A stretch of 26,206 nucleotides of DNA from the NCBI GenBank assembly GCA_947085205.1, contig CAMTVO010000041.1, positions 1 through 26,206 of the forward strand, in the 5' to 3' direction. Shown piece after piece: positions 1 to 17,380 of this stretch (its first letter is position 1; every line of letters starts with the position of its first letter). The position numbers and the translations under genes are program-made. This DNA comes from an uncultured Nitrospiraceae bacterium (GTDB lineage Bacteria; Nitrospirota; Thermodesulfovibrionia; Thermodesulfovibrionales; Dissulfurispiraceae). The notes under the pieces were generated by a model that had not been told where the DNA came from, did no database searches, and saw only the letters and a list, made by a program, of their open reading frames with translations.

Positions 1-239
1 CTTATTATTGGCTCTATATCATCAAGATGTTTAAGAGGATTATCAGACTGACGGACCCTGATGTTTCAGTTGCCTCTTATTATTGGCTCTATATCATCTA
101 TAGCAGAGGACATGACTGCCTGCGATATGATAGTTTCAGTTGCCTCTTATTATTGGCTCTATATCATCCTTAAAAAGGGAGGTGAAAGATCAGTTTTTGT
201 TGGGTTTCAGTTGCCTCTTATTATTGGCTCTATATCATC
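1..239 (-). CRISPR. CRISPR array (truncated by window start): 3 full + 1 partial 36-bp repeats, 3 spacers
   Basis: Identical repeat GTTTCAGTTGCCTCTTATTATTGGCTCTATATCATC (+) at 63-98, 133-168, 204-239, partial at 1-23; unique spacers of 39, 34 and 35 bp (24-62, 99-132, 169-203). The minus-strand repeat GATGATATAGAGCCAATAATAAGAGGCAACTGAAAC ends in GAAAC and the non-coding leader-like region lies to the right, so transcription is inferred on the minus strand. Confidence 0.98.
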
Positions 240-458: not shown

Positions 459-1409
459 TCACATTTCTCGGGCGGTATTTTCAATTATCTTATATCTCCC
501 GAACCCGCTTGTTGTGTGCTGGCCTACACCAATAATCTCGCCGAGCTTAAGATAGGGGTAAAAAGGGTCCAGGTTTCCTGACGTAATGAATATCCCTACC
601 TGTCCCCCCATCTTTATAGATTTTCTTTGTCTCGATGAATTTCTCTCGTAATCATTCCATTCAGTATGGGACTCCATCCGAATCTGTTGTGCAAGCGAAA
701 TCAAGCAGCTTTTAATATGCTCAATCTGTTCTTTGTCAAAGAGAATACCATCGCAGTACAGATTGTTCAGGTTAAGGACCCTTTTTATCAATAGTTTGAA
801 AAATTTCTCAAAAGACAAACCCTTGTAGTATAATCCCGCGCCTTTTTCCTTTATCTTTACAGGCGTAAGCAGTTCCAGCAGATGTTCTCTTGTTTTTGCT
901 TTTTCATTGGACATGCGGGAAAACTCTATTTCTGAAGTTGTCACATCCACCACGAAGAACTTGCCTCGCCCTCCGCCGATTCCTTGCATGCCGAGCCTTT
1001 CAATAACTTTTATGAATCTATATATCTGATTTGCAGCGTTGCCTATCAAAAACAGATCCAACCGGAATTTCTCACCTCTGATATAGGCGCTCTTCATATC
1101 CAGCGCAGGATGCAGCACATATGGCCGGGGTGGTATTCGGCCTTCGTTGTTGCCGAAACATTTGAAATAAATGCATGATTCCTTTTTTTCACAGTGTTTG
1201 CAATCCTCTCCTTCATCTTCACATCCCATGTCCCATAATACCTTAGCGCCGATTCCACCCCTCCATCTGTCACCTTTCATGTCATCATCCCCAAGATATA
1301 TCCTGTCCATAGGTGACAGAGTGAATGCCAGCTTCAGCATTCTGAAACCTGAAAGGGACTGCTTCAGGTAGTCGAGGTTATCTGTTTCTGCCGCTGCTCT
1401 TGAATTCAT
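459..1409 (-). CDS. cas6: Cas6 crRNA-processing endoribonuclease (RAMP)
   Basis: C-terminal G-rich loop GVGQHTTSGFGRY, internal GIGGGRGKF, PPRPYVL motif, N-terminal Cys cluster (CEDEGEDCKHCEKKESC); adjacent to the array. Confidence 0.93.
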   Translation of the reverse strand: MNSRAAAETDNLDYLKQSLSGFRMLKLAFTLSPMDRIYLGDDDMKGDRWRGGIGAKVLWDMGCEDEGEDCKHCEKKESCIYFKCFGNNEGRIPPRPYVLHPALDMKSAYIRGEKFRLDLFLIGNAANQIYRFIKVIERLGMQGIGGGRGKFFVVDVTTSEIEFSRMSNEKAKTREHLLELLTPVKIKEKGAGLYYKGLSFEKFFKLLIKRVLNLNNLYCDGILFDKEQIEHIKSCLISLAQQIRMESHTEWNDYERNSSRQRKSIKMGGQVGIFITSGNLDPFYPYLKLGEIIGVGQHTTSGFGRYKIIENTAREM

Positions 1410-1414
1410 CTTAT

Positions 1415-1660
1415 TTAATCCGGACTGTGGTTAAATATAACCACATCGCCAGTAACCGGGCTTCTGTATATCAGCTTCCTTGCCTTTCCATGCAGGGCAT
1501 GGGCGATTTTGAGATACAACCATACCGGCGCTGCGCCGGTAAGTATAATATCATTTCCTTCTCCGGCAATTTCTTTTGCCTTCTGGACATAAGAGTCAAG
1601 CTCGGAGAGCTTGGCAGAGGTGGTTGCTGCATAAAGGGTAGAGAGGTCTATACGAATCAA
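1415..1660 (-). CDS. csx3: Csx3 (Crn3)-like ring nuclease
   Basis: Small protein with IILTGAAPVWLYLKIAHALH, resembling the Csx3 G-x-x-P-x-W-L-Y...H motif. I place the start at TTG 1660, which overlaps the upstream TGA (TTGA); the ORF track start is 1675. Confidence 0.78.
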   Translation of the reverse strand: MIRIDLSTLYAATTSAKLSELDSYVQKAKEIAGEGNDIILTGAAPVWLYLKIAHALHGKARKLIYRSPVTGDVVIFNHSPD

Positions 1661-2457
1661 TGTTTGATACCCCAAGTAATGTCATATTCATGGACTTTGT
1701 AGTCACGAGTGCTGACATACTGAATGCGGCGACCTTCACCCAACCCAATAATACCGCCCATTACCCCGGGTATTTTCTGCCCACCGGTAACATCCAGAAT
1801 AATGTCTTTATAAGAATAACCTTCGTTGTTTAAAGCGTCATAAAGATTATCTAACGCATCAAAAAGATCAACGGCGTCTTCAAAGTCAACGCCACGGTAA
1901 GTTGGGTCGTTGCTGATGGGTAAAACAATTTTATCCGGTGCAATACCTGAGGATGCAGCCATCACTATGCGAAAGTTATCCACTTGCCGCCATGTACCAT
2001 CCTGCGCTGTACCGGATGAATCTTTTGAAGGGATAACAACGACCTTATCCAGTTTATCAGCACCCAACGCCTTGATTGCCTCAAACGCCATACGCCATGC
2101 TCGCATTTTTTCCGGATTAGTTTCTCTTTCAAGGCCGGGAGTTGGCGGACTAAGAAACCATATCAATATCTTAGCTCCGCTGGCAGCACGTTGTTTGATG
2201 CTGGGGGCAATAGACGGCGCTTTGGAAAGAAAGCGTCCAACTATGAGAGCGATAACAAAAACGGGTAACAAACCCCAGAGTGGTGGTTTTTCCGGGCTAA
2301 TGAATGCCATCAGAGCATCCCCGAACCAGCCAATAGACGCAATGATAAAAACTGCAACCAAAATCGTTCCTGTTGAAGCGGCTCCGCCAAATATTGCTCG
2401 CATAGCCTCAATGCCGCCATAAAAAGCAGTCTTTTTATCTTGAAAACGTCCAAGCAT
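1657..2457 (-). CDS. Transmembrane-CARF effector (Cam1-like architecture)
   Basis: Two N-terminal hydrophobic segments (TILVAVFIIASIGWFGDALMAFI; LWGLLPVFVIALIVGRFL) followed by a Rossmann-like CARF domain (LIWFLS, GVDFED, IILDVTGGQK, IQYV); AGGAGG RBS; inside the cas operon. Confidence 0.82.
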   Translation of the reverse strand: MLGRFQDKKTAFYGGIEAMRAIFGGAASTGTILVAVFIIASIGWFGDALMAFISPEKPPLWGLLPVFVIALIVGRFLSKAPSIAPSIKQRAASGAKILIWFLSPPTPGLERETNPEKMRAWRMAFEAIKALGADKLDKVVVIPSKDSSGTAQDGTWRQVDNFRIVMAASSGIAPDKIVLPISNDPTYRGVDFEDAVDLFDALDNLYDALNNEGYSYKDIILDVTGGQKIPGVMGGIIGLGEGRRIQYVSTRDYKVHEYDITWGIKH

Positions 2458-2550
2458 ATTATATCCTCCTATATTTTGATTATATGTTTGTTGGTTTCGG
2501 TAATTCTACAACATCCATATACCCATATCCTACTGCTGTCTTTGCGCCGT

Positions 2551-3723
2551 TTATAGCAGATATTTCAACACCTTCAGCGTGTTCTGATAGTCGCTATCTT
2601 TTTCAGGCTTCTTGGCGATGCTTTTCTCTTTCCAAACCGTAGCAGCCTGCATTAATCCCCTGATCTTTTCAGCAACCTGCTTTTTATCATTTTCATCCGG
2701 CCAGTGGTTTTCCTCCAGTTTTTTAAGGAGAAGAACATAGTCTTTCATATTTGGGTCATGCTTTTCAGCCAGCAGTTTAGCTATGCTTCTCTCAAATGGC
2801 GGTAAATTCTCTATTTCTCTCTGCCTCAGCAACTCTTCCTCTCTTTTTTGCAATATTTCCTTTTGATGTAAATATTCGCCTTCCAGCCTCTTTGTATCTG
2901 CTTCATCCTTAGTCATCCTTCCATAGCCCACTGCTGTCTTAGCGCCTGCGCCAAGCCATTCCAAAGCATCTTTGAGTTCTTGAAGAACGCTGTCCAAATT
3001 AATGTTGCAACCTGGACGCGCCGAAATTGAGAAGAGGAAACTCTGTCCCGGGGCAACCGCCAGAAAAGGCACCGGCACCGGATTATGCCAATCGGCGGGC
3101 ACATTGGAGCCATCGGGGTTTGGAACACCACCACCCTCTTCATACCACTCGTCGTAATGCGGCGTCATCACATCTGCCTGCAACTGAACAGGATTTGTCG
3201 GTATCGCATCAAAAAATATGAGGTTCCCAACAGCAGGTTCTATCTTATTCGTTTTATCCTTTAATTCTTTAAAAGAAGGGCCAAACCAGTCGCGCAATTT
3301 TTCTGCTTTTTTGTCTTCATCAAGCTTTTCAAATTCGCTTGACCACTGCTCGCACCAAGCGCGCAGCAGACCTTTCACAGCCGCGCCTGTCAGGTATGGT
3401 ACTCCCAATGTGGGATGCCATGCAAAGCCGTTCTCTACAGGGTGATTTATGCCCATGCCAGTAACGAAGTGCCAATCGGTTTTTGCAACAATACTCTTAC
3501 CCCCCAATGAATCTATTAACTCCATTTGACGCATCACAAATTGGCCAACCTTTTCTCCCCCAAGAGGTGATAAAGTGATTTTTTTTATCCACTTGAGTTT
3601 AGCTCCGGGCACAGCCCCATTTGGATCATATGCATCAAAGAAACGATCATACCACAGGCCAGCATGCCCTCCAGAAGGATAGTTATCCGGTGGATTAAAA
3701 CCGTTATATAAAGGTGAGCTCAT
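2551..3723 (-). CDS. cmr6: Type III-B RAMP protein Cmr6
   Basis: HFVTGMGINHPVENGFAWHPTLGVPYLTGAAVKG, DVMTPHY, NPVPVPFL and GAGAKTAVGYG motifs. Confidence 0.96.
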   Translation of the reverse strand: MSSPLYNGFNPPDNYPSGGHAGLWYDRFFDAYDPNGAVPGAKLKWIKKITLSPLGGEKVGQFVMRQMELIDSLGGKSIVAKTDWHFVTGMGINHPVENGFAWHPTLGVPYLTGAAVKGLLRAWCEQWSSEFEKLDEDKKAEKLRDWFGPSFKELKDKTNKIEPAVGNLIFFDAIPTNPVQLQADVMTPHYDEWYEEGGGVPNPDGSNVPADWHNPVPVPFLAVAPGQSFLFSISARPGCNINLDSVLQELKDALEWLGAGAKTAVGYGRMTKDEADTKRLEGEYLHQKEILQKREEELLRQREIENLPPFERSIAKLLAEKHDPNMKDYVLLLKKLEENHWPDENDKKQVAEKIRGLMQAATVWKEKSIAKKPEKDSDYQNTLKVLKYLL

Positions 3724-4121
3724 TGTGTATCTCCTTCCTCGCTCTTTAAAAATGCCTTGGCAAATTTCTTAAGCCAGTCAAGGTAAGCCAAGGCTTCTAT
3801 CTGCGCCATACGATAGATATGCTTATCACAGTTTGTTATACACTGAACGATATGCCCTTGTTGCCCGTGAAATGGACGGCCTTCCTTCTTGAGCCATTCC
3901 TCAACAGCCTTCAAAACGTCCCGATGTTCAGACTTTTTATTGGCTATATAAAAAGCACATGCCTGACCAAAGCCATTCATTAATATCATTGGACCGAATG
4001 AAGCCACATAGCTGTTGAATCTTTTTTGTTCATCATCTTTTCCTGTAGTCTTAGCCTGATATGCTGTAATGCTGTCGAGTGCATGTTTAGCCCTCTTCTG
4101 GGCGATCGTTGGTTGACTCAT
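3720..4121 (-). CDS. cmr5: Type III-B small subunit Cmr5
   Basis: 133 aa helical protein: QKRAKHA, GPMILMNGFGQACAF, EALAYLDWLKKFAKA; between cmr4 and cmr6 with ATGA overlaps. Confidence 0.95.
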   Translation of the reverse strand: MSQPTIAQKRAKHALDSITAYQAKTTGKDDEQKRFNSYVASFGPMILMNGFGQACAFYIANKKSEHRDVLKAVEEWLKKEGRPFHGQQGHIVQCITNCDKHIYRMAQIEALAYLDWLKKFAKAFLKSEEGDTQ

Positions 4122-4975
4122 AAACTAACCTCCGTCACCCGGCACCAGCCCATCCCTACGGTCTCGTTGCCGCCGATTTGAAGATAGGGTTTATCACCTG
4201 AAAACATCCCTGTAACGTGACTGAGTACTGTCGCCGCATCCATCCCATTACTACTGCGGGAGGGATTGGCTAAAAGCATTGTGTAGAGTAGGGTATCAGG
4301 CGGCAGAGTTTCTTCATACCAGAGTGCGCCGGGGATCACCGTCTTCTTAGTATTGGTATTGTCAATGGCTATATGTGGTGTTACTGCCGTGGCCGTCAGG
4401 CTAAAAGCAGCAAAGTCCTCATTTTGCATGATTGCCAGTTGCTGCTTCAGTTGTTCCTTGTCCATTCCAAACCCGACAAGAACATCTATAAGATCATTGA
4501 TATTTTCTTGTACCTGATTAAACTGATACTCTTCTAAGAAAATCGCGGTGCCGCCGCTTCTTGTAACTACGGCCTCGGGCTTTGTAGGTGGTATGTTAAA
4601 CTCTATAGGTTTGCCGACCAGTTGCATATCTCTTTTTAATCGTTCAAGCACCGCAGGGCAGGTGACCCATTTAAAATGACTTGTTAGTGATCGTACCGGC
4701 AGCAATAACAGACGGGCATCGGTAACTGCTATCGCTCCGGCATGATCAGACGCCTTATCATTGGCACCTGGCCCAAAAACATCCTTAATCCACGGAGGAT
4801 TTCCGCATCGCGTCTCAGCATGAGAACGCAGCGCCCCTTTCATTGCCGAACCATAAACACACGGCCAGCCGGTGTGCGCCTCACGCTGAATGGGCAGATC
4901 CACGACTCCTGTATTTTGACCTGTACCTGCGTGAATAGATGTTTCTGCCCGAAGTCCAAGAATTGTTTTTTCCAT
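4118..4975 (-). CDS. cmr4: Type III-B RAMP backbone nuclease Cmr4
   Basis: SIHAGTG, VDLPIQREAHTGWP (catalytic-type Asp present), LLLPVRS, LWYEETLP, LQIGGNETVGMG. Confidence 0.97.
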   Translation of the reverse strand: MEKTILGLRAETSIHAGTGQNTGVVDLPIQREAHTGWPCVYGSAMKGALRSHAETRCGNPPWIKDVFGPGANDKASDHAGAIAVTDARLLLLPVRSLTSHFKWVTCPAVLERLKRDMQLVGKPIEFNIPPTKPEAVVTRSGGTAIFLEEYQFNQVQENINDLIDVLVGFGMDKEQLKQQLAIMQNEDFAAFSLTATAVTPHIAIDNTNTKKTVIPGALWYEETLPPDTLLYTMLLANPSRSSNGMDAATVLSHVTGMFSGDKPYLQIGGNETVGMGWCRVTEVSL

Positions 4976-5012
4976 AGATTTTCTCCTTTATTCTAATCTT
5001 GCAATATCTTAT

Positions 5013-6113
5013 TTATTTCCATAGACCAACGGCTATCTCACCGTAGCCAAACTCAGTCCGATTGCCGATTTTCTTTCCATGTAGTGCATCGATTGCCTGT
5101 GTAATATCGCCTGTAACTTCCACGAAATAGCTGCTGCCCGACGGAACTAAAGATTTCAGCGGCTTGGGTTTGGGCTTATTTCCTGCATAGTCCCAGCCTC
5201 CTTCCCGCACCGGTTTGCCGATACAGGCTGATTTTAGACTCAGGTTCTCTCCATACTCTGTATTTATAGCAGCCCAATCAGGTTCAGGCTTACCACTAAA
5301 ATCGCCATGTGTCAGGAGTGTCAGGATCAACCCTTTTTCGCAGCCTGTCGGATGAGGAGTCACCGGAAAAGTAAGTTGTGCGCCGTTATTAGACAATTCC
5401 GCCAACCGCCCTTCGCCGCCAAAACGGGTCAGTATTTTCTCCGGCAATGTAACACTATCTGGTAGGCCATTTACATTGATACCGAAAGACACCTTATCAT
5501 CAAGCCACAAGTGGCGGACGAAATAGAGAAGCCCTTCCTCTACCGTGCTCCGTTGGTTGTTGCGGCCAATACCGGCGCGGTTTTCATCGCTAACCAATTC
5601 TGATGCTTTGATACCGCCTGTCGGCAGACCGCCTCCGAGAACGATATTGAAATCCGTTTCATTCAGCCAAACATTTTCCGGCAGCTTGCCGCCGTCAAAT
5701 TTGCCTGCAACCTCCGGCAATGCCACATTGTCTATATCGCAGGTTACAGTCCCGCCGGGTTGCAGGTGCGCCCATTCATATTGATTATCATCAAGTTTAT
5801 AAAGCAGGTGCAGCGGCGCAGGATAAAGTCGCCTGCCATCCTGTAAAATAAAAGGGCCTGAAAAAGAGAGGGGAGCAAGATTGTCAGGAGCGCCGATCAC
5901 CTTGCGAAGAGAGTTATCAGGATTTTTCCCGTAATCCTTCCAGTCCAAGTTCACTCCAATTGTTTCGCCAATGGTGTTGCGGAAAGAACCGATTAATGTC
6001 TGGGCAGGCGGAGGAAACTGCGAGTTGAGAAATCCTCCCTCACTGGCGTTAAACGGCTTTGCTTCACGAAAGAAGCAGGAATCTACTGGCTTAAAACTCC
6101 AGAGTATGCTCAT
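5013..6113 (-). CDS. cmr3: Type III-B protein Cmr3
   Basis: PVDSCFFREAKPF, FPPPAQT, FGGEGR, GGWD, VPSGSSYF, FGYGEIAVG motifs. Confidence 0.95.
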   Translation of the reverse strand: MSILWSFKPVDSCFFREAKPFNASEGGFLNSQFPPPAQTLIGSFRNTIGETIGVNLDWKDYGKNPDNSLRKVIGAPDNLAPLSFSGPFILQDGRRLYPAPLHLLYKLDDNQYEWAHLQPGGTVTCDIDNVALPEVAGKFDGGKLPENVWLNETDFNIVLGGGLPTGGIKASELVSDENRAGIGRNNQRSTVEEGLLYFVRHLWLDDKVSFGINVNGLPDSVTLPEKILTRFGGEGRLAELSNNGAQLTFPVTPHPTGCEKGLILTLLTHGDFSGKPEPDWAAINTEYGENLSLKSACIGKPVREGGWDYAGNKPKPKPLKSLVPSGSSYFVEVTGDITQAIDALHGKKIGNRTEFGYGEIAVGLWK

Positions 6114-7966
6114 CTCTCCACCCCCTTCTGCGCCAAGAAGCGTAACAGCATAGCGGCCTCTGCGCCATAACTGCCGTCGGCTTTTTTGCAGAGCGGCAGC
6201 AGATCTGCAATGCGCGCCTCTGGTATCCTATTTTTCTTATCTTCTTTAGTAAGTACGCCGCTTGTAGCATATTCGGCGACAAGAAGTTTTTTTATCTCAT
6301 CGTCACTGAAGCCACTGCCGCCTTTCAGCATCTCCAATCGCTCTCGGATGCGATAAAGGGACTTGCTGGCGTGGCCCGGCTCATCATCTTCGGATTGCTG
6401 GAATTGCCGCGTTAGTTTCGCAAGTTTTTGTACTGCTCCGCCCGCATCATCCCACCTCATAGACCATGTCAGTTGAATGCCGCCTGGTTTCCAGACTCGC
6501 ACAGCTATGGCGTCTCTGCCAGTCTTATCCTTGGCCACATCGTCCAGAAGCCGATGGCTGTCTTTTAAGACAGCGGTCAGGGGGATCTTCATGTGGGCAT
6601 AGATAATTGCCCCCGAAATACTGGCTTTGGGATTACCCACGACATTAAAGCCCTGTGAGTTGAAAGCCTCGATGTAAGCCTCCCGCAGATTAATGGCACA
6701 ATCCAATGCGTCTTCCAACGGCAACAGAGCCAGCACATCGTCGCCGCCAGCATAGACCAAAAAACCGTTATTCTTCTTTACAACGGCAGAAACTTTATTC
6801 GTAAATTCTTCCAGAGCCTTGCCCACTTCATTTGCTTTGCCTGCCGCTATGGCAGCGCCCAGATTGTCGCCGTCCATAAGCAACACGGCATAAAAAGGGG
6901 TAGGATACCCAAGTTTCCGGCCAGGTTTTATTTCGGTTTTGGATAGTTCTGATAAGGCGTTAAGCGCCTTTTTGGCTTTGTCGGTATCAAATTCTTTATT
7001 GTTTTCCAGTTCCGAACGAAAAAATACCCGGCCATCAAGGCTGGAAAAACGGAATTTCAAACTCCTTGCATCAACTTTATTATCAATGCAATGAATTGAA
7101 GTGGACCATTCTCCATAATCAACCAGTTTATTTGCGCTGTCATGGAAGTTTTTAAGTTTATCGTCCGGTGCATGTTCAATCGCTTGTTCCAGCCAGTGAA
7201 CGGCAGCCATGTAGGAGGTAGAGGGGACTCCAGTTGGGAGTTTCCATTCTTTATGTATTGCCTGCCATACGTGCACAAACCGTCGTTTGATATAAGCTAT
7301 GGCGCACAGCCGTTCATTGTCACGCAGTTCCAGAGGGTTTGTAATATTCTTCCGCACTTTCTCCCAAAACATCTTTTGACCATGTTCGCCTGGAGCCTCC
7401 ACACCGGAGAGTTCCTGCCACTCACCCATCATGGTGCATTTATCACCCTTTTGTTCGGGCGGATAATGACTGCGCCAGTTTTTTCGCCTGTCAAGCAGAT
7501 TGGGATTGTTTTGCTCCGCTGAAACACAAACCCAACTTATTTCCCAAAAGTTTTTAATCTGCTCATTCCATAGATTTTTCTGTTTTACCGTTGCGATACC
7601 TGCCAGTTCCTTATTCCATACAGCATCGGCAATTTTTTCCCATGCAGCTCTTACAGCACCGGCGACTTCATTACCTTTAAAACCAGCAGGTACGCTTGCC
7701 GAGAAGCGATTGGGGATAGTGCCGATGGTAGGTGGTTCTTTTGCCGATTGATTGCCTTCGACCCATTGCAGCAAAGCATCATTTGTTACATCCGGCAGGG
7801 TGATCACTCCGTGCTGCTCACGGACAGACTTCATAGCATTGGCGATCAAATACGACAGGATGAACGACCCTGCCCAAAAATCACGTGTCCTTCTGGCCTG
7901 AGAAACAAAACCTTGAACGGGGCCGAGGGTAAAATGGAAGCGATGAGTATGGTTTTGTTGATTCAT
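6110..7966 (-). CDS. cas10: Cas10/Cmr2 (type III-B), no HD nuclease domain, intact cyclase motif
   Basis: Begins directly with LGPVQGFVSQARRTRDFWAGSFILSYL (Cmr2 N-terminal motif); LLMDGDNLG and YAGGDD Palm motifs; only 618 aa. Confidence 0.97.
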   Translation of the reverse strand: MNQQNHTHRFHFTLGPVQGFVSQARRTRDFWAGSFILSYLIANAMKSVREQHGVITLPDVTNDALLQWVEGNQSAKEPPTIGTIPNRFSASVPAGFKGNEVAGAVRAAWEKIADAVWNKELAGIATVKQKNLWNEQIKNFWEISWVCVSAEQNNPNLLDRRKNWRSHYPPEQKGDKCTMMGEWQELSGVEAPGEHGQKMFWEKVRKNITNPLELRDNERLCAIAYIKRRFVHVWQAIHKEWKLPTGVPSTSYMAAVHWLEQAIEHAPDDKLKNFHDSANKLVDYGEWSTSIHCIDNKVDARSLKFRFSSLDGRVFFRSELENNKEFDTDKAKKALNALSELSKTEIKPGRKLGYPTPFYAVLLMDGDNLGAAIAAGKANEVGKALEEFTNKVSAVVKKNNGFLVYAGGDDVLALLPLEDALDCAINLREAYIEAFNSQGFNVVGNPKASISGAIIYAHMKIPLTAVLKDSHRLLDDVAKDKTGRDAIAVRVWKPGGIQLTWSMRWDDAGGAVQKLAKLTRQFQQSEDDEPGHASKSLYRIRERLEMLKGGSGFSDDEIKKLLVAEYATSGVLTKEDKKNRIPEARIADLLPLCKKADGSYGAEAAMLLRFLAQKGVER

Positions 7967-9138
7967 GGCAGCACCACCTGTTTGCTTGAAAAACGATTAG
8001 TAACTACATTTGGTGATTTCCTGTCTTTGCCGTCTATGAAATCTGTAATCACTGTCCAGTCAACATTTGCTGGAACAATATTGTTACCAGCTTTTATTTT
8101 TTCGTTGATTGGCAAGAATTGAGCACGCAAATAAATAGAAACTCCCACAAACAAATTTGTCCCTAACTGATGCACATGGAAAAATAGCGGGCTGGAACGG
8201 CGTTCATGATCTTTATTTTCAGATTTGACTTTTAGAGAGTCCCCCTGTCCATAATCATGAGGCAATCCAAAGGCTACTCGTTCTGGATGATTCTCTGGAT
8301 ATAGTGGCCCCCTTTGATATCTCCACTCATGATCATTGAAAAAATTCTTTTCCGATGGATTGCCGCTTGGAAGAATATTGTTGTTTATTGTCCTACCCCA
8401 GCTGCGATAATCCAATATTGCTTTCCCAAAATCATCTAATACAGAATATGGGGTGTTCCCAGAAAGCAATATATCAATTCTTGATTTTTCCGAGAAAGCT
8501 GTGAAAGGTGGTTCATTGGCTGTAAGTGGAAGAGGGAACAATTCTTTGATTTTAGTTTTGTATTCCTCCTGAGTCGTCGGTGCTGCCCAGATTGTTTCCT
8601 TCTGATACTTCTCCTGATTGCGAATGATTTCATATAAGGCAATACTCCCCATACCATGACGGGAGCGACTACCAAGTCCTCCAAGCAATCCAAATACTTT
8701 GACTGCCCTTAGTATACTATCTATATCTGATTGAACTGCTCTTGGATGAAACCGTAAAATAATTTCAAATTCTTGTTCTGTAGGCAATGCGTTTCTTCCA
8801 CTAAGTCCCATTCCGGCTAAGTATTTACTGCCTCCAGTAAATACTGGATTCGTTGGTGTCATTTTGACATGATTTACCGACAACAAAAAACATCCCTGTC
8901 CGCTTCCTTCGCCATCGGTTGCACTGCCAAATAACCGCGCCTCCTCAGCGTGCAATGTCGGCAATGCCGAAGCATCATCGGCTCCTGTAGCACCACTGAT
9001 ATTCCCCCAGTTCAGCGCCCGCCACCAGAAACGCAACGCTCCCTTAAATGACGGTGGCCTGATACCCTCTGCCTCATGGTTTGCCCCACCGAGAAACATA
9101 GGGGTTACAATCCTGTAGATTGCCGTTACCGTTTGCAT
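7963..9138 (-). CDS. cmr1: Type III-B RAMP protein Cmr1
   Basis: VTPMFLGGA, IRPPSFKGALRFWWRAL, LGGLGSRSRHGMG, AFGLP, RRSSPL motifs. Confidence 0.96.
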   Translation of the reverse strand: MQTVTAIYRIVTPMFLGGANHEAEGIRPPSFKGALRFWWRALNWGNISGATGADDASALPTLHAEEARLFGSATDGEGSGQGCFLLSVNHVKMTPTNPVFTGGSKYLAGMGLSGRNALPTEQEFEIILRFHPRAVQSDIDSILRAVKVFGLLGGLGSRSRHGMGSIALYEIIRNQEKYQKETIWAAPTTQEEYKTKIKELFPLPLTANEPPFTAFSEKSRIDILLSGNTPYSVLDDFGKAILDYRSWGRTINNNILPSGNPSEKNFFNDHEWRYQRGPLYPENHPERVAFGLPHDYGQGDSLKVKSENKDHERRSSPLFFHVHQLGTNLFVGVSIYLRAQFLPINEKIKAGNNIVPANVDWTVITDFIDGKDRKSPNVVTNRFSSKQVVLP

Positions 9139-9151
9139 ATCTTCCTCCCCA

Positions 9152-9562
9152 TCACTCCCTTATCCTCTCCCTCACCCCATACGGGTCACTTATACCCTTA
9201 AAAACAACCGCTGCTTCACCTTCTGCTGCTGAAATCATTATAACTGTTCCTATATTCAGGATTCTCTCAACAATCCCCTGCCTGACATTTATCGCCCTGA
9301 TATGTCTCAATTGCATCTCATTGGTATCCCTTGCAATCAATCCCACCCTCATAATAACGCTGTTGTTTGTAACAGTGAACTGGTATCTATACCTTGATAT
9401 TGCCGCACCTCCGACACATAATAATAAAAGGAGCAGACCGGCGCTAATATTTTGCGCCGAGAATGAAAAAATTAAAAGCACAAGTCCAACAAGATAAAAG
9501 CCTATATAATTCAGCCACGAAGGCCGCCCCTGATAAATAATTTTTTCATCAGCATTATTCAT
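9152..9562 (-). CDS. Membrane protein with bacterial PH-like domain (bPH_2 / YdbS-YdbT-like)
   Basis: IIYQGRPSW, two TM helices, then FTVTNNSVIMRVGLIARDTNEMQLRHIRAINVRQGIVERILNIGTVII-like pattern typical of bPH_2 proteins. Confidence 0.82.
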   Translation of the reverse strand: MNNADEKIIYQGRPSWLNYIGFYLVGLVLLIFSFSAQNISAGLLLLLLCVGGAAISRYRYQFTVTNNSVIMRVGLIARDTNEMQLRHIRAINVRQGIVERILNIGTVIMISAAEGEAAVVFKGISDPYGVRERIRE

Positions 9563-10307
9563 TAAAGTTCAGAAGGGAGCCCCCGTAGTTTTCTTTTGAA
9601 AGACTTGCCCCGCACTCCTTGAAATATCTGAGCCAGAAGTTCTGGATAGCAAAGAATCTGTCGCGGTTTTCTGCTGTTGCGCCTGTTACATAGACTTTTA
9701 CATTGATTAAATCAGGGAGCATGTGTTTCTTCTTTTCATTCGTTATGATTTCAGCTATCCTTTTTCCTGTAAGATTCTCCCTTGCAAAATTGTAATCCTT
9801 GGATTCTTCAATCATATCGGACATTATAACCAGTATATACCTGTCTCGTTTATAGCTCTTAAAAACTTTCTCTGCTATATGTAAGGAACTCAAAATGTCT
9901 GTATAGGGGACTTTGACATTTTGAGTTAGAATAGTCTTTTCGACATTATTGATTATTTTGTCTTTTCTCTCCGTGTGCCTTTTCTTGAGCATCTTGTCCT
10001 TAAGCGGGCCTCCTTCAAGAAAAGAAGGCTTCTCAAACTCTTCTTTTACCGGAAGCGTAGATTTAGTGATGGATGCTTCAGCTATTCTGTCTGCGACTAT
10101 AACATCACCCGGATTAATCTTGTTCAGGACAGCCTTGAAGTCTTCAAGATACCGCTTTCTTATCTCTCCTTTTTTTGTGCTGTCCGAAATATCAAAAAGC
10201 ACAAAAACAACCTTACTCTGGTGCTCAGCGCAGTATGCCAGAACCGGGAAGATTATAGCCCCCAGTATAAAGACAATGTAAGGTATCCGCTTCAAAAGAT
10301 TTTTCAT
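9555..10307 (-). CDS. Exported/membrane-anchored vWA-like protein
   Basis: Signal-peptide-like N-terminus (MKNLLKRIPYIVFILGAIIFPVLAYCA); VFVLFDISDS (MIDAS DxSxS), YTDILSSL (MIDAS Thr), LVIMSDMIE (MIDAS Asp). Confidence 0.78.
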   Translation of the reverse strand: MKNLLKRIPYIVFILGAIIFPVLAYCAEHQSKVVFVLFDISDSTKKGEIRKRYLEDFKAVLNKINPGDVIVADRIAEASITKSTLPVKEEFEKPSFLEGGPLKDKMLKKRHTERKDKIINNVEKTILTQNVKVPYTDILSSLHIAEKVFKSYKRDRYILVIMSDMIEESKDYNFARENLTGKRIAEIITNEKKKHMLPDLINVKVYVTGATAENRDRFFAIQNFWLRYFKECGASLSKENYGGSLLNFNE

Positions 10308-11404
10308 TGTTCTTTCCCGCCCGGATGTTGTCCTCCTTCCAGATCATCGGTTATGCCGCAATCCACATCAAGTTCCTGCAATGAATGAGGAATCTCTATA
10401 GGTGGATAGTTTTTAAATGATTTAGGGAGATCGTTCCTGCGTCTCAGATTGTGTGCGCGATATGCTTCTATTACCCTTTTATGTATAGCTGTGATCTCAC
10501 TAACCATAGACTGGTATTTTTCAAAAGTGCGTTCTCTCAGTGCCTCTATCTTGACAAGCACCTCAGCAGCCTCATCCACCCTTTCTTCAGCCTTAATTAC
10601 ATCTCTGCTATCTTTTTGAAGCCTGTTTCTTGCATCTTCAAAATCTTTCCTTGCTCTTTTGAGATTAGGGTGCGGGTCATGGGCAAGATAGGAGGCAGTG
10701 GCAGCTACACCAAAGATGAACAGTTGTATAAAAATGAATACTATTGTGACAGTTGTAGGGTCCATTTGCATGCCCAAGACCTTTTGAAACTCTGACGCTT
10801 CAAAGAACTTTTCTCTCAGGTAAGCGATTGCAACAATCACTCCTACAAACAGCACTGAATTAACACCGGCTATAATGCTACTTTTCTTATTAAATTGTTC
10901 CCTGATAAATATTCCAAGGAAATGCGAAGCCATAGGAAGGGCAATACATAGGGCTGCCGCAAAAAGATAGGTAAGCAGGCGGTTTTCTCCAAGGATATCA
11001 AATACAAAGGCGGTAAGTGGAAATTCGCTTAATCCGATAACTATTATGAGAAACCAATATGCTTTATGGCTGAAGTGCGGATAGGTAGAACTTTCTCGCT
11101 TTTTCTTTAAGGCAGCTTCATAATCCTGAAGCGCTTCGCCGTGTTCGCCCCTCTCTTTATTCAGGTCTTTGAGCGCATCTATATATTCCCTTTTTGCACT
11201 GCAATAGTCTCCTTTTAGTTTTCTGTCTTCGTTATCCCATTTTTGGGCAACACGCCTAATATTCTCATCAGCAATCAGAATAAGCTGCTTTTCGTATGGA
11301 CAGTGATCTTCCTGGTCGACCGTTGGAATGTTCCTTTTGCCGTCTATTCTGCCGTACATCCATGCGCCAAAATATGTGTATGAAATCCAGCTAAGCAATC
11401 CCAT
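10304..11404 (-). CDS. Hypothetical four-TM membrane protein flanked by coiled-coil regions
   Basis: 366 aa; four hydrophobic segments in the middle third, charged helical regions on both sides, C-terminal YRAHNLRRR; GGGAGG RBS; ATGA overlap with the vWA gene. Confidence 0.8.
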   Translation of the reverse strand: MGLLSWISYTYFGAWMYGRIDGKRNIPTVDQEDHCPYEKQLILIADENIRRVAQKWDNEDRKLKGDYCSAKREYIDALKDLNKERGEHGEALQDYEAALKKKRESSTYPHFSHKAYWFLIIVIGLSEFPLTAFVFDILGENRLLTYLFAAALCIALPMASHFLGIFIREQFNKKSSIIAGVNSVLFVGVIVAIAYLREKFFEASEFQKVLGMQMDPTTVTIVFIFIQLFIFGVAATASYLAHDPHPNLKRARKDFEDARNRLQKDSRDVIKAEERVDEAAEVLVKIEALRERTFEKYQSMVSEITAIHKRVIEAYRAHNLRRRNDLPKSFKNYPPIEIPHSLQELDVDCGITDDLEGGQHPGGKEQ

Positions 11405-11575
11405 GTATCCTCCCTTGTCCGGTTATCTTGTATTTTTACCTCGCAAAGCAGGGAACAGCTCTGTTTCCCCGGCTGTTAACTTTATCTTTCCAACCGCCCA
11501 TATTGCTACCACACTGCCTTTCTGAATTACAATGTTTTTTAAACCTGCCCCTTTTACTTCTTATCACAATCAGGG

Positions 11576-12757
11576 TTAACTGTCAATACGTATCTTCCCC
11601 TTCTCAACCCTCACCCCATATCTGCTGTCGGCATATCTTTTAACCGTTGCCACCTGGTAGTAAGGCAGGAGTGTTTCATCGTGGAGTTGTTCCTTTATTG
11701 TCCTGTTGATCTTGCTTATATTTCCCCTGAGGACTTCAGGCTTAATGCCATCTTTCCATTTGCCGGATAACTCTTCGCCCTTCAATGGCTTTCCCCCGTA
11801 GATCTTGTCATAATCCTTTGCCATAGCTTCAAGAGCCGGTTTACTTGCGAGATCTGATAACACAAAGAAGCAGTCTGCGCATTCAAGACAATAGGGCCTG
11901 TCAGGATATTTACAATGTTCAAGTTTTTGCCGCAGAAAGGCCGCATAAATCATTAACTGCACGGGAACCATTTCTATAAGAGTTTCCCCAATATAGATAG
12001 TCCTCGCAAAAAGGTCAACTGTCAATTCAGGCTGGATTGTCGCTGTGTCCCACTCCCGCTGTCCTTCGGAAATAAGTTCCCTGAATCCTTTTCCCTTTAG
12101 TGAAAGTTTATTCCCAAGTCTGATGAGAGGCAGTTCGGCAAGCTGAATCTCTGCGTTATCAGTGTTCAGTTGTTTTATAGAGCCATCGGGACACCGTCTT
12201 TCGATAACCGTGTTTTTCTTTGGTTTGTAAAAGAAGTGCGGGTTTGTCTCAAAGTCGGATGAAACCAGGACATGGTAAAGCCGGTCCCATGGCCGGCCAA
12301 AGAGCTGCAAGGCGCTGCCGATGTAAAAGCTCATTGTCTTCCGCCCGCCAGCCAGCGAACAATGCAGTCTTGCGGATTTATCATGGGCTTTTTCCATGAT
12401 AAGCGATGTGATACAGTCTCCCAGAGCCTCATTCTCGGCTTCATTGCGGATATCATCAAGCTCCTGCCCTGAGGGGTCTTTCACAATGATAAATGAATCT
12501 TCCTTCAGTTCCAAAGCCGGTAGACTGTATTCGTCGGCAAGCGCTTTTAAAATTCCCTTTTCGATCAGAGTTTCTTTAATGCATCTCTTTCCTGTGCTTG
12601 TGGTGATTATATACATTTCATCTGGATGAACTTGCGGATTCTTTTGAGAGAGGGCGTAGATAGTTTCGGTGATTATCTGCGGCGTCGCACCCGCAACAAA
12701 GATAAAGATTTCTCTGAATTCCTGTTTCAGCATGGCGAACCTATAGTGCTCGCACAC
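11576..12757 (-). CDS. NE0113-family CARF protein (often annotated Csm6/Csx14-like) with Cys cluster and winged-helix-like C-terminus
   Basis: GATPQIITETIYAL, LDDIR, SLAGGRKTMS, DRLYHVLVS are NE0113 CARF motifs; C-terminal LRGNISKINRTIK...YGVRV resembles an OmpR-type winged helix; no HEPN R-x4-6-H motif evident in the C-terminal region. Alternative ATG start at 12733. Confidence 0.85.
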   Translation of the reverse strand: MCEHYRFAMLKQEFREIFIFVAGATPQIITETIYALSQKNPQVHPDEMYIITTSTGKRCIKETLIEKGILKALADEYSLPALELKEDSFIIVKDPSGQELDDIRNEAENEALGDCITSLIMEKAHDKSARLHCSLAGGRKTMSFYIGSALQLFGRPWDRLYHVLVSSDFETNPHFFYKPKKNTVIERRCPDGSIKQLNTDNAEIQLAELPLIRLGNKLSLKGKGFRELISEGQREWDTATIQPELTVDLFARTIYIGETLIEMVPVQLMIYAAFLRQKLEHCKYPDRPYCLECADCFFVLSDLASKPALEAMAKDYDKIYGGKPLKGEELSGKWKDGIKPEVLRGNISKINRTIKEQLHDETLLPYYQVATVKRYADSRYGVRVEKGKIRIDS

Positions 12758-13781: not shown

Positions 13782-15596
13782 CTAAGCAATGAGGACATTG
13801 TCGGCGCCTGCAATGTATTTGATGTTAGACGCCAGAACGATTCTGCACTTGAAAATACGACTCGTATAGAATCTATATCCCGCGGATATAGATTGTATAC
13901 GAGGGTCTCTTTTTCCTATCAAATCCAAAACATAACCTATTGTTTCTTTAATATTTTCTCGTATTTCTACATCTATAAACACCTCCTCCTTGCAATTTAT
14001 TACAATGGTGTCCACGATATAATAAAGGGTCTCTCTCGTAGTTGCCGGGTTAAGAAGTCCGTCTATGATTTTCAGAAAATAGTTTTCCATATCTTTAGCT
14101 GTAAGCAGGTCTGCTATATTCATGCTTTCAACATCGCTGACCCGATAAAGCAATAGTTCGTTTTCCAATTCTGTTTTGCGCTTTTCATTTTCGAGCAGAA
14201 GTCTTTCCACCGTCTCTGTGTTTTCAATAGTAGGACTGGATAAAATGAGATTAGCGATATTATTTAGGCGCTGCTTAACCGTCTCAACCTCTTTTTCTAT
14301 CTCATCTCTCTGCCTGCCTCTAATGGCATCATTCATTATGTCTCCGAGGGAGTAGTGGATTTCCTCTGTTATTAAGGATAAGGTGTTCTTATTTATAAGC
14401 TCCCGGCAGAGTGTCGTAATGATAGCTTCCTCAAGTGCTTCTTTTTTTATCTTGACCGTGTTCGAACAGGCGTTGTTGCCGCTGTTATGATTTCTGGCGC
14501 AGCCGTATTTTGCATATTTGCCGCCTGAGACTATCCCGAAAGTTCCTCCGCAAGCGCCGCATACGGCTATACGGGTGAGAAGATTCTCTGAATACAAATG
14601 CTTTGCTCTGTGATATACACCGTCTGTTTTATCCTTAATCTCTCTCTGACGTTTTTTAACAGCTGCCCATATCTCATCGGAAATAATCCTGAGTTCCGGC
14701 TTTTCGACCACTGCCCATTTATCAGGAGGATTTATAACAGCCTTGGGTTTGCCTGTTTTCGGATTTTTTTTGTATGTGGTCCTGTTCCATACGTATTTGC
14801 CTATATATAGTTCATTATTCAATATCCCTCGGAAGCTTTTTTTGCTGCCGAGTAGTGTGGAAACGCACCAGTGTTTTCCCCTCGGGGGTTTCGGACTATC
14901 TGTCTCGATGAGTTCCCTGTTAAAAAGGTTCACTATGCGTTTGGCAGACCAACCTTTGATGCCGAATAGCGTATAAATTCTTCGCACAACTTCAGCTTCT
15001 TTATTATCTATTTCTATTCTGTAACCATCGGCTTTAGGAGTTCCGTACTTGTCGGTTTTCCCTGAATACTCCGGCTTGGACATGTAGCCGTAATGACTTC
15101 CTCCACCGCTGAACCCTCTTATCACCTGGCTTTCGACGCCGTCATGTGTTCTAACGCTTATTTTTTCCAATAACATTGAGTCGGTCATACCGTGGAGCGC
15201 TATGATCGTTTTTGAATCTGGATTTTTGGTATCAATGTTTTGTGATACGTAATACACATAGATGTTGTTGAATGTGAGATCTTCAAAGACCTCCAGCGCT
15301 TCTCTTGGATTTCTGGCGACACGTGATGTGTCATAGACTAATATGTATTGGAACGGGACATCTTTTTTCTGGGCTACCTCAAGAAGTTTTTTTAGGCCAA
15401 GTCTCGGTGCTATGCTGCTACCTGAAAGTGCTTTATCGTAATATATGTGGTCTTCCATTACGAACCAACCTTTTGATGCGGCAAACTCCTTGAGTATACG
15501 TATTTGGTCCTCAATACTCCGTTCGTTTTGGTTCTCGCTGCTATACCTCGCATAGATGGCGCAAGTGATAAGAATTATTTCTTTTTTGTTTGTCAT
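13782..15596 (-). CDS. Large serine recombinase (resolvase + recombinase + zinc-ribbon domains)
   Basis: AIYARYSSENQ (catalytic Ser), DTSRVARN, YGY, ILNNELYIG, RIISDEIWAAV, CGACG...YGC...C zinc ribbon, coiled coil. Confidence 0.95.
   Translation of the reverse strand: MTNKKEIILITCAIYARYSSENQNERSIEDQIRILKEFAASKGWFVMEDHIYYDKALSGSSIAPRLGLKKLLEVAQKKDVPFQYILVYDTSRVARNPREALEVFEDLTFNNIYVYYVSQNIDTKNPDSKTIIALHGMTDSMLLEKISVRTHDGVESQVIRGFSGGGSHYGYMSKPEYSGKTDKYGTPKADGYRIEIDNKEAEVVRRIYTLFGIKGWSAKRIVNLFNRELIETDSPKPPRGKHWCVSTLLGSKKSFRGILNNELYIGKYVWNRTTYKKNPKTGKPKAVINPPDKWAVVEKPELRIISDEIWAAVKKRQREIKDKTDGVYHRAKHLYSENLLTRIAVCGACGGTFGIVSGGKYAKYGCARNHNSGNNACSNTVKIKKEALEEAIITTLCRELINKNTLSLITEEIHYSLGDIMNDAIRGRQRDEIEKEVETVKQRLNNIANLILSSPTIENTETVERLLLENEKRKTELENELLLYRVSDVESMNIADLLTAKDMENYFLKIIDGLLNPATTRETLYYIVDTIVINCKEEVFIDVEIRENIKETIGYVLDLIGKRDPRIQSISAGYRFYTSRIFKCRIVLASNIKYIAGADNVLIA
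13861..13903. repeat. 43-bp near-perfect palindrome inside the recombinase 3' end
   Basis: CTCGTATAGAATCTATATCC-CGC-GGATATAGATTGTATACGAG: 20-bp arms, one mismatch. Confidence 0.9.
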
Positions 15597-15719
15597 AACC
15601 TGAAATTAACAGATATGAAAAAGGAATAATACAGTTTCGAATCGCTTCGATTCTAAAATGAAAGCTAATATACATGATGATATTGATTTATTGAGATATT
15701 TTCCGTTATATTTTGCAAC

Positions 15720-16916
15720 ATGAAGGAACGATACGGTTGGGATAAGTATAAGAAAGAGGGATTAGCAGAGATGGAGAGGGTCAAGTCTTTTATGGTTTTA
15801 CCCAAAGACGAAGCCATAATAGATTTGGTCGAAAGATATATCAGATTATATAAAGATAAAAAAATTTATAAAAAAGACGACATAAGCGCAGTAATACTTT
15901 ACCAAACCATCGTTGAAGAAACTGCACAAAAAAGAGCCAAGAAATACTTAGAAGCAAAAGTTACTGAATCCAGGGACAAAGACTTGTTGCACCTGCTTGA
16001 GAAAGAATCCGTGAACAAAGCGACAAAGGTTTTCCTTAAAAGTGCTAAAACGGACAAAAAATTGAGAGAGGAACTTGAAAAACCTGCACAAGACAAAGCC
16101 TCTAATCAAGCCAAAAAACTTAGATCGTTTTTAGAAGATTTTTATAATTCAGCGGAAGGGAAGAAATCTGAATATAGACTTTTTTTCGTCTCTGATGAGA
16201 GAGACTATAGGCTTGGGATTAAGAAGGCAGATATATTAGGCAAGACAAATAAAGAAACTGGCACTAAACTCCCAGAGTTTGCACATATTAAAGAAATACT
16301 TCTAAGCTTTTTCAAAATCTATCCTGAAGCATGGGCAATGCCAAAGCGCTTGGTAGCCCGTTCGACTGCATCGAAAACGTTTAATTGGGATACAATAGCT
16401 ATTTTCTTATTGTCTGCAACATTAGTTGTATTAATGTCTCGTTCTTTTTTCAGTAGTTACAAATTTTATGTTGAAACTGCGAACATTCATCCAGTTTTAA
16501 CCAATTTTCTACTCGCACGGCTTGGAAAAATCGAGAGGCCATTTGACAACATCCTTTCCTTTGAGTTGCTTTTTTATATATTCAGATTTGCTGTAATAAC
16601 GACGATAATCCCATGGCTTATATATACAAAAATATTTAAGGGAAGCGCTTCTGTTTATGAAATAATGAACCTCCAATTTTATTTTCTATCATCATGGATT
16701 CCTGTTTTTGTTTGGGTAGGATTTGCTGATATTAAACTGACTTTCCTGAATGCAGACGCAACTCTTTTAAGACTCTTTACGGCTCTACTTGGACTATGGG
16801 TTCTGTATACATACTACAAATGTCTCTATCAATTATCAGGCTTTACTTGGAAAAAGGGCATTTCCCCTTATATAATCTATATCCCTGTCCATTTGTGGTT
16901 CATAACCATACTGTGA
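15720..16916 (+). CDS. Hypothetical membrane protein (charged N-terminal half, about 5 C-terminal TM helices)
   Basis: 398-aa AT-rich ORF; hydrophobic segments start at TIAIFLLSATLVVLM; no family recognised. Confidence 0.7.
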   Translation: MKERYGWDKYKKEGLAEMERVKSFMVLPKDEAIIDLVERYIRLYKDKKIYKKDDISAVILYQTIVEETAQKRAKKYLEAKVTESRDKDLLHLLEKESVNKATKVFLKSAKTDKKLREELEKPAQDKASNQAKKLRSFLEDFYNSAEGKKSEYRLFFVSDERDYRLGIKKADILGKTNKETGTKLPEFAHIKEILLSFFKIYPEAWAMPKRLVARSTASKTFNWDTIAIFLLSATLVVLMSRSFFSSYKFYVETANIHPVLTNFLLARLGKIERPFDNILSFELLFYIFRFAVITTIIPWLIYTKIFKGSASVYEIMNLQFYFLSSWIPVFVWVGFADIKLTFLNADATLLRLFTALLGLWVLYTYYKCLYQLSGFTWKKGISPYIIYIPVHLWFITIL

Positions 16917-17035
16917 AATGAACTGCTCATGGAAGCTAAAGCCCTTGGTAAACTCTGATGTTCAAAAAAGTTTATCCGGATAGAAAACGGATAGATAAAA
17001 CTACAGCTCTATCTATTGAAATCAATAGATAATTT

Positions 17036-17380
17036 TGGTGGAGGCGGCGGGAATCGAACCCGCGTCCGAAAGTACTGCTCTCAAGCTTCTACATGTTTAT
17101 CCTACCTATTTAGTTTCGGATACCGGATTGCCGGCAGGCAGGCCTGCCGGTATCCTATCCCTTAAATTTCCCATCAGAATTAAGGGCATCATCTGATGGC
17201 AGCCTGCTGTCCGACGCTTTCTCCAAGGCACAGGCAACCTTGAAGGAGCGTGCTGCTATTGGTTAAGCAGCGAGTGCCAGTTCGTTGTTGGCGTTTGTGT
17301 TTTTTCCACCTTTTTACGTGGTGATGGAGCCACGACATGCCACTTGAGCCTCATAACCCCCGTCGAGCCCTATCGCCCCC
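17036..17380 (-). ncRNA. ssrA: tmRNA
   Basis: Minus strand 5' GGGGGCGATAGGGCTCGACGGGGG, 3' GGTTCGATTCCCGCCGCCTCCACCA; tag ORF ANNELALAA* at 17292-17263; next to smpB. Confidence 0.97.

Follow-up and report, generated by a model that had tools for sequence, protein, structure and literature searches.

Gene organization of the locus

We analysed a 26,206-nt stretch of contig CAMTVO010000041.1 from an uncultured Nitrospiraceae bacterium, referred to below as the window, in which three genes, here called A, B and C, lie on the minus strand directly ahead of type III-B cmr genes. Gene A (10304..11404, a 366-aa ORF) encodes a predicted inner-membrane protein with four transmembrane (TM) helices on a coiled coil. 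Gene B (9555..10307, 250 aa) encodes a von Willebrand factor A (vWA) domain with a MIDAS metal-binding site and an N-terminal hydrophobic export signal, and gene C (9152..9562, 136 aa), an optional member, encodes two TM helices and a bPH_2 domain. Along the minus strand the order is a CARF gene of the NE0113/CARF5 type (11576..12757), a 171-nt gap (11405..11575), A, B, C, the type III-B core cmr1-cmr2(cas10)-cmr3-cmr4-cmr5-cmr6 (2551..9138, with cmr1 at 7963-9138), a 2TM-CARF effector gene of Cam1 type (CARF8 TM, 1657..2457), a gene for a Csx3/Crn3-like ring nuclease (1415..1675), cas6 (459..1409, assigned on evidence including reciprocal hits to PADLOC-typed Cas6) and a CRISPR array (1..239) of three full 36-nt repeats and one truncated by the contig end.

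The original prediction of three co-oriented, tightly linked genes between the NE0113 CARF gene and cmr1 agreed with the sequence. The A and B ORFs overlap by 4 nt (ATGA), B and C overlap by 8 nt (ATGAATAA), and a 13-nt spacer with GGGGAGG separates C from the cmr1 ATG. Its statement that no room is left for a promoter holds from A to cmr1 but not upstream of A, where the 171-nt gap that separates the CARF and A ORFs forms a possible promoter region within a block 79% identical to the related locus L061; a consensus scan of the coding strand of this gap gave no promoter and no terminator. The short C-cmr1 spacing, and the position of the module directly ahead of cmr1 or cas10 in several other loci, would also suit a module that binds the Cmr/Csm complex directly and so anchors it at the membrane, which we consider very improbable. 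The Cas10 of the window keeps GGDD and has no HD motif within its first 80 residues, and for this reason the locus likely acts through signalling.

Predicted properties of the A, B and C proteins

Hydropathy gave four segments in A, and the TM helices were placed at about residues 113-137, 142-168, 173-196 and 216-241. In the AlphaFold2 (AF2) model (pLDDT 92.7) they cap the tip of an antiparallel coiled coil in which residues 36-105 pair with 247-321. Neither A nor B matched a Pfam, NCBIfam or PADLOC model, in the case of PADLOC at a meaningful E-value. The ESM Atlas returned only unnamed clusters, at 0.97, Foldseek returned no match at E 0.001, and VIA matched generic coiled coils (best Z 11.4). 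The A profile collected 1602 relatives at 50% clustering, 283 of them at E 1e-30. Among 132 aligned members, position 127 is Glu in 130 and Asp in 2, and R197 is kept in 130; both residues belong to the membrane part of A. A distal conserved patch consists of G18, D21, G22, P27, R290, Y315, N319 and R323. Among candidate longer fusions of A (768-2190 aa) none scored, which is weak evidence.

The prediction that B is an exported vWA protein with MIDAS residues was supported by fold models and by an alignment of 69 relatives. Its AF2 model (pLDDT 91) has the vWA alpha/beta fold, the top Foldseek matches were all vWA (E 5e-7), and VIA gave Z 15.2 with a root-mean-square deviation of 2.5 over 163 aligned residues. 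D39, T136 and D164 are unchanged in 69/69 relatives, while S41 is kept in 66 (Thr in 3) and S43 in 68 (Thr in 1). Hydropathy gave one N-terminal segment, the predicted export signal; a loose lipobox-like pattern was found at the N-terminus of 27 of the 69 relatives and not in the B of the window. Viral contigs held no relative of B (A was not scanned there), and one weak plasmid match was seen (26%, E 3e-4); a phage origin thus found no support.

C matched bPH_2 (PF03703) at E 9e-15 with 55.1 bits against a cut-off of 22, and it has two hydrophobic segments, as predicted for a bPH_2 membrane protein; its profile had no match among PDB sequences. As to topology, the termini of A are probably inside and the vWA domain outside, because A has no signal peptide, some relatives of A carry a cytoplasmic SAVED fusion, and a TM linker joins the two parts of an A-B fusion.

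The conserved unit is the A-B pair

Relatives were collected into a census of 88 distinct loci, after 12 fetched regions were dropped (11 duplicates and one without A or B). It covers neither short loci with 1.5-kb flanks nor six hits that were not fetched; in family f26, 4 of 19 positive genomes were extended, and A-profile matches at E 1e-4 to 1e-7 in one scan were treated as noise. The census leans to close kin of B because 60 loci came from the B scan. In the samples searched the module was rare, being found in 6/251, 3/201, 5/301, 20/167 and 1/251 genomes, the 20/167 counting one unpublished genome; those close relatives of B that bear names come mostly from Nitrospirota.

Complete A-B pairs were found in 78 of the 88 loci. 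The ten loci without a full pair comprise five at a contig edge, two with B remnants (L050 and L053), a possible fusion (L057), and L147 and L148, which have A alone. The order A before B holds in 58 of the 59 loci that were scored, and the two genes often overlap. The distances among A and among B proteins correlate (rho 0.58 over 70 pairs; none of 999 shuffles was as high). A firm A-B fusion, P0196, joins the two through a TM linker, and its vWA part scored E 4e-87. L057 was rejected as a second fusion, its N-terminal half having no score to the A profile. Structure prediction of an A+B complex scored 0.00 twice, which is evidence neither way. Broken copies or remnants occur in L030, L032, L050, L052 and L053.

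C was found in 13 of the 88 loci; ten of these are cas-linked, and in L001 the gene is broken. In 251 genomes of the bacterium's class, the five proteins closest to C (52-63%) are all encoded in type III loci, one of them, in L130, without A-B. The conserved unit is therefore the A-B pair, with C optional: the prediction of an undescribed three-gene module held for a recurrent envelope module of type III loci, and not for the trio as its core. A small hydrophobic protein of about 100-117 aa recurs next to A-B-C or next to C alone (L002:7330-7683, L009:8365-8691, L013:9412-9765, L053:348-701 and L130:1362-1655), and it is possibly a fourth optional member.

Association of the module with type III CRISPR loci

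Among the 88 loci, 28 are cas-linked, 29 are cas-free (no cas gene in flanks that extend 4 kb or more to either side) and 31 are too short to call. All 21 loci with core genes are type III, of subtypes A (L107), B and D and from several phyla, and no type I core gene was found among the neighbours scanned at those 21 loci; the other seven cas-linked loci have only cas6, cas1, cas2, reverse transcriptase (RT) or CARF genes. Linkage of the homologues to type III loci is thus recurrent, yet with 29 cas-free loci the family is not restricted to CRISPR. Mapping of the cas label on the A tree required 9 changes by a quick method against 16.6 after shuffling, and 5 by FastTree against 15.9, a clustering that near-copies inflate in both cases. 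In the first tree one A clade held 19 loci, 15 with cas, none cas-free and 4 undetermined; two cas-free copies of A alone joined it in the later tree. The A of the window groups with those of L061 and L062 beside the main CRISPR clade, at a weakly supported place. The cas-free clades come from Leptospirillum, an Armatimonadota-like group, Gemmatimonadota and one unnamed group. They lie among housekeeping genes and are kept across lineages, as in 19 of 28 genomes of one family.

Between the window and L061, DNA identity is 79% from C through the CARF gene and ends at the cmr1 boundary, and the Cas10 proteins are 25% identical. The two loci are a clean example of exchange of the core module. The likeness stops at window position 9157 (8019 in L061) and returns at csx3, so that the cmr1-6 and TM-CARF cassette differs. 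The Cas10 of L061 (8923-10749) has GGED and not GGDD, though effectors of cyclic tetra-adenylate (cA4) type are present.

A rival reading sees in A-B only an ancient envelope pair, carried along in type III islands as a passenger or acting there as a separate pair of defence genes, with no mechanistic tie to Cas10 signalling outside the clade fused to SAVED. The 29 cas-free and 31 undetermined loci, the patchy spread (3/201, 5/301 and 1/251 genomes), the remnants and broken copies in the five loci named above, and a serine recombinase gene and tmRNA that adjoin the window locus all agree with this. Against it stand the restriction of typable cas loci to type III (21/21), the position of the module inside operons, the clustering of the cas label on the tree (5 changes against 15.9), and the excess of membrane effectors and the SAVED4 fusion described below. 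We consider this explanation unlikely, and a functional connection of some kind between the CRISPR-clade module and type III immunity is quite likely.

Genomic setting and neighbouring genes

On the upstream side, a large serine recombinase gene and tmRNA flank the cas locus (window 13782-17380), and a membrane-protein gene of low GC (0.355) lies within this flank (15720-16916). A second recombinase with 44% identity is on contig C15. Because recombinase and tmRNA adjoin, the arrangement suggests that the cas locus sits in an island at ssrA; no att duplicate of the tmRNA 3' end was found in the assembly. The markers used detected no further cas locus, and neither cas1 nor cas2, in the 1.89-Mb assembly (90% complete); about 1.2% of the genome falls within 10 kb of the cas locus in the window.

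The NE0113/CARF5 gene upstream of A is of a type that commonly stands first in type III loci of the class: it is present in 18 of 40 cas10 regions, many of the type III loci it leads lack the trio, and loci with A-B where it was observed are L061 and the cluster of genome G013. A role as dedicated regulator of the trio was rejected as unspecific on these counts. The C-terminal part of the protein has four invariant Cys and a weak winged-helix likeness (KdpE at E 0.25) that was not recovered with a 15-sequence profile and is a lead only. The protein may be a regulator that responds to cyclic oligoadenylates.

Several other loci have neighbours of their own. A-B often adjoins RT-cas1 adaptation genes (L006, L008, L014, L028, L032, L050 and L096), and a link to RNA spacer acquisition is a possibility. 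In L016 (1988-4399) an 803-aa CARF7-HD protein lies ahead of A-B-C, with CYTH-RelA genes downstream on the opposite strand. In L053 (348-6766) the B remnant, C and a type III-D locus with CorA are preceded by a second operon. It encodes a multi-TM protein, an exported vWA-like protein of another kind (1901-3025), an AAA ATPase and a radical SAM protein. The G013 cluster comprises three type III systems (B, D and A) with a SAVED4-TM gene within it (L163:13426-13911), and A-B stands at its far end next to a cas6-RT-cas1 fusion. Distant Gemmatimonadota relatives of A-B follow an ATPase gene in L056, L058 and L059, and L058 lies in a Tad/Flp pilus operon.

Relatives of A fused to SAVED4

The A, B and C of the window have no CARF or SAVED match, as predicted, but the statement fails for the family: six relatives of A (L004, P0168, P0180, P0188, P0198 and P0208) carry a C-terminal SAVED4 domain of the CalpL type. 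PADLOC matched SAVED4 in all six (E 1e-14 to 7e-23), comparison with CalpL structures gave E 8e-5 (9eyi) and E 2e-4 (8b0r), and the Atlas leads for the fused domain, at 0.83-0.85, were all SAVED. The fused proteins form a single well-supported clade nested in the CRISPR clade and thus represent a single fusion event rather than six. L004 is the sole fusion with gene context (B, A-SAVED, cmr1, cas10 with GGDD, and CARF-RelE), and a further search for fusions with context found only L004's own (1/251 genomes).

The CalpL SAVED domain binds cA4, forms filaments and degrades cA4, according to the available text of bioRxiv 10.1101/2024.05.08.593097, and by analogy the ligand of the fused SAVED4 is probably cA4. 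S571 and H574 of the fused domain are invariant (6/6) and lie in the same loop as CalpL S395/H396, out of register in the hidden Markov model (HMM) alignment. Ring-nuclease activity of the fused SAVED4 is not established, because the spacing differs from that of CalpL.

The SAVED-fused L004 retains B, which argues that B is more than a sensor. Integrin I-domains provide a precedent for inside-out switching of a MIDAS to a gripping state. By such a block of entry, a cytoplasmic signal passing through the coiled coil and TM bundle of A would set the MIDAS of B to grip a phage receptor, a pilus or an ejection protein. The intact MIDAS, the pilus-tip vWA adhesins among the fold matches of B, and the distant relatives in the Tad pilus operon (L058) agree with such a role. 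It leaves the excess of pore effectors unexplained, the fold matches of B tie with many unrelated vWA domains, and the Tad-linked clade is very distant; an entry block therefore seems quite unlikely to us.

Membrane effectors accompany the module

A link of the module to effectors of the TM-CARF type had been predicted, and the effector genes of the type III loci bear it out. Of the 21 type III loci that have A or B, 14 include a membrane effector gene: six have Cam1-like TM-CARF genes (the window, L010, L050, L061, L132 and L133), six CorA (L003, L005, L012, L014, L032 and L053) and two Mem_01 (L001 and L107), which would correspond to Cam3 by the description in PMC11229360. For a control, 151 genomes of the class were searched for the Cas10 palm, 40 regions were fetched, and 2 from the A-B-bearing G013 were removed; Cas10d-sized hits, weak hits and some short contigs were omitted. 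None of the 38 control regions had A or B, and 8 had a membrane effector, these 8 including one fragment and one Csx23-like gene. The difference between 14/21 and 8/38 gave a Fisher p of 0.0008, and restriction of the module loci to those of the class or named Nitrospirota gave 5/7 against 8/38 (p 0.015), p-values that overstate the case because the loci include kin that are not independent. The published baseline, as given in the accessible part of PMC11229360, is at most 147 of 1113 loci (Cam1 52, CorA 53, Csx23 4, Cam2 26, Cam3 12).

The effector directly adjoins the module in L003, L005 and L012 (CorA), L107 (Mem_01), and L132 and L133 (TM-CARF). Cassette swaps are a stronger argument for the effector link than the p-values. 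L032 and L107 have A proteins 90% identical, one in a III-B locus with CorA and the other in a III-A locus with Mem_01; L001 and L005 have A proteins 70% identical, one in III-D with Mem_01 and the other in III-B with CorA. The messengers are cA4 for Cam1 and SAM-AMP for CorA, as far as the accessible part of PMC11229360 states. These swaps, together with the exchange between the window and L061, indicate that the module does not depend on a particular Cas complex or messenger. These results show that the module is a type III accessory that grew out of an older envelope pair, has one branch fused to SAVED, and is markedly biased to loci with membrane effectors.

Comparison with known systems

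No description of the module was found in open-licence PMC and bioRxiv full texts, subscription journals lying outside the search, and we regard the module as uncharacterised and possibly flagged once before without analysis. The main text of Altae-Tran 2023 (PMC10910872) reports vWA systems with transmembrane proteins near CRISPR loci, and its Table S3 lists the associations 'transmembrane_vWA + DUF4407' and 'DUF4407 + other protein'. According to these entries, the hit, CRISPR-linked and uncharacterised, pairs a gene for a TM vWA protein (about 801 nt) with another of about 1107 nt, near the sizes of B and A. The comparison was made by gene size and label, and the DUF4407 label may rest on remote homology. 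A differs in having no DUF4407 score, and neither the rows nor the passages concerned mention a SAVED fusion, a partner with bPH_2 or an association with membrane effectors. By HMM search A had no match to DUF4407 (PF14362) at E up to 0.5, the DUF4407 model scored nothing at the A gene in 5 A-bearing genomes, and DUF4407 was not among the best 25 of 62 families for 132 members of A; membership was rejected. In the main text of Hoikkala 2024 (PMC11229360), the terms vWA, Willebrand and PH domain do not occur.

Cam1, Csx23, CorA, Cap1 and the candidates Cam2 and Cam3 are, like the module, membrane proteins of type III loci, by the accessible parts of PMC11229360 and PMC12642688. A-SAVED resembles the Cam1 kind of effector as a TM-plus-sensor protein, and C as a TM-plus-small-domain protein. 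Those effectors are single genes with a cytoplasmic sensor, whereas A-B includes an exported protein and a long coiled coil, mostly lacks a sensor, and co-occurs with them instead of replacing them. The architecture of Cap1, as far as described in PMC12642688, is unlike that of the module. SAVED4 is common to CalpL (SAVED4-Lon) and the six relatives of A, in which it is fused to a 4TM coiled-coil protein paired with vWA, and not to Lon or a bare 2TM segment. The latter arrangement belongs to Cap14, a SAVED-TM protein of CBASS.

In Zorya (ZorA/ZorB) and Kiwa (KwaA), a multi-TM protein with a long cytoplasmic tail has a partner with a periplasmic domain; the likeness to A-B is topological only, the partner in A-B being vWA and not OmpA-like. 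vWA domains also occur in conflict systems such as the vWA-MoxR ternary and GAP1-N2/tubulin systems. Some GAP1-N2 systems have a TM protein and an extracellular vWA, and TM-vWA proteins appear in the available text of Kaur 2020 (PMC7159879) in tubulin/GAP1 systems only. No MoxR, GTPase, tubulin or GAP1 gene was found in the window, and no such conserved cluster among the neighbours of 65 loci. C resembles the YdbS/YdbT bPH_2 proteins and Psp-type membrane protection (accessible part of PMC8144471) in combining bPH_2 with TM helices and in the protective role proposed for it, but a YdbT or PspA partner is absent from the window.

Proposed function of the module

The reading that we prefer, at a probability of roughly 0.35, is that A and B form a complex spanning the inner membrane, which serves as a damage-limiting second-tier arm of type III immunity. 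A and B would bind each other, with B outside and the coiled coil of A inside, as the P0196 fusion with its TM linker suggests. The trigger would be a loss of membrane potential caused by the pore effector of the locus, in the window the Cam1-type TM-CARF protein. A-B is read as responsive to depolarisation because a change at the membrane is one trigger common to Cam1, CorA and possibly Cam3. E127 and R197, in or at the edge of the membrane, would sense or conduct protons, which would explain why unfused A-B occurs in both cA4 and SAM-AMP loci; in the SAVED-fused relatives, cA4 would switch A directly, SAVED being a later short-cut. The output would be protective, so that an arrested cell recovers once Csx3 clears cA4, and C would contribute as an envelope-stress protein of the YdbS type, YdbST being reported in the accessible part of PMC8144471 to protect against amylocyclicin. 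Damage control is favoured by the long retention of cas-free copies, intact A without B, the ring nuclease of the window and the YdbS-type partner.

The main rival holds that A itself is a pore or membrane-damaging effector. SAVED filaments formed on cA4 would cluster and open the fused A, unfused A would amplify depolarisation by Cam1, CorA or Cam3, and B would be a plug, cap or assembly partner. The SAVED4 fusion in six relatives agrees with this, as do the cA4-dependent filaments of the CalpL SAVED in the available text of bioRxiv 2024.05.08.593097, the action of the TM-plus-sensor effectors Cam1, Csx23 and Cap1 on the membrane, the conserved charged and polar residues in the TM bundle of A, and the restriction-modification and TIR genes that adjoin A in L148. 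Intact A without B in L147 and L148 speaks against B as a needed antidote, the cas-free clades have long been kept among housekeeping genes, and no significant match of A to a solved pore-forming fold was reported, the VIA matches being generic coiled coils, which decides neither way. We consider a pore function of A somewhat less likely than damage limitation.

Several points also weigh against damage limitation. The trigger of the A of the window is a guess because this protein has no sensor domain, and A persists without B in L147 and L148. Seven of the 21 type III loci have no Cam1, CorA or Mem_01 in the DNA fetched (four at contig breaks, one decayed, one with A-SAVED and one with a SAVED4-TM gene about 24 kb off), and the control came from one class with many kin while the test set spans phyla. 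A was found in 6/251 genomes of the class against a Cas10-palm match in 48/151, so pore effectors usually work without the module. Most loci have no C, and C is related to YdbS through a common Pfam domain only. Cap14 is among the characterised SAVED-fusion effectors. That characterised SAVED fusions are effectors, as the accessible parts of PMC11229360 and bioRxiv 2024.05.08.593097 describe, favours a toxic output, and the output of A-B may lie in either direction, protective or toxic.

More broadly, and as a tentative proposal, the module may be a type III arm that reaches beyond the inner membrane: A would relay cA4, through the fused SAVED filament, or the depolarisation by Cam1, CorA or Cam3, to the periplasmic MIDAS in the fashion of integrins. 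The family of A is large and unnamed, with 1602 clusters at 50% identity. The module gives a direct handle on the fate of the cell, death or recovery, after depolarisation by Cam1, CorA or Csx23. A-SAVED4 is a candidate for a new membrane effector under the control of cA4, paired with an exported protein, and it is amenable to existing cA4-producing systems. The two-gene module tracks three unrelated membrane effectors through cassette swaps, and if the proposed function is true, it would be the first downstream partner common to unrelated pore effectors and to both cA4 and SAM-AMP signalling.

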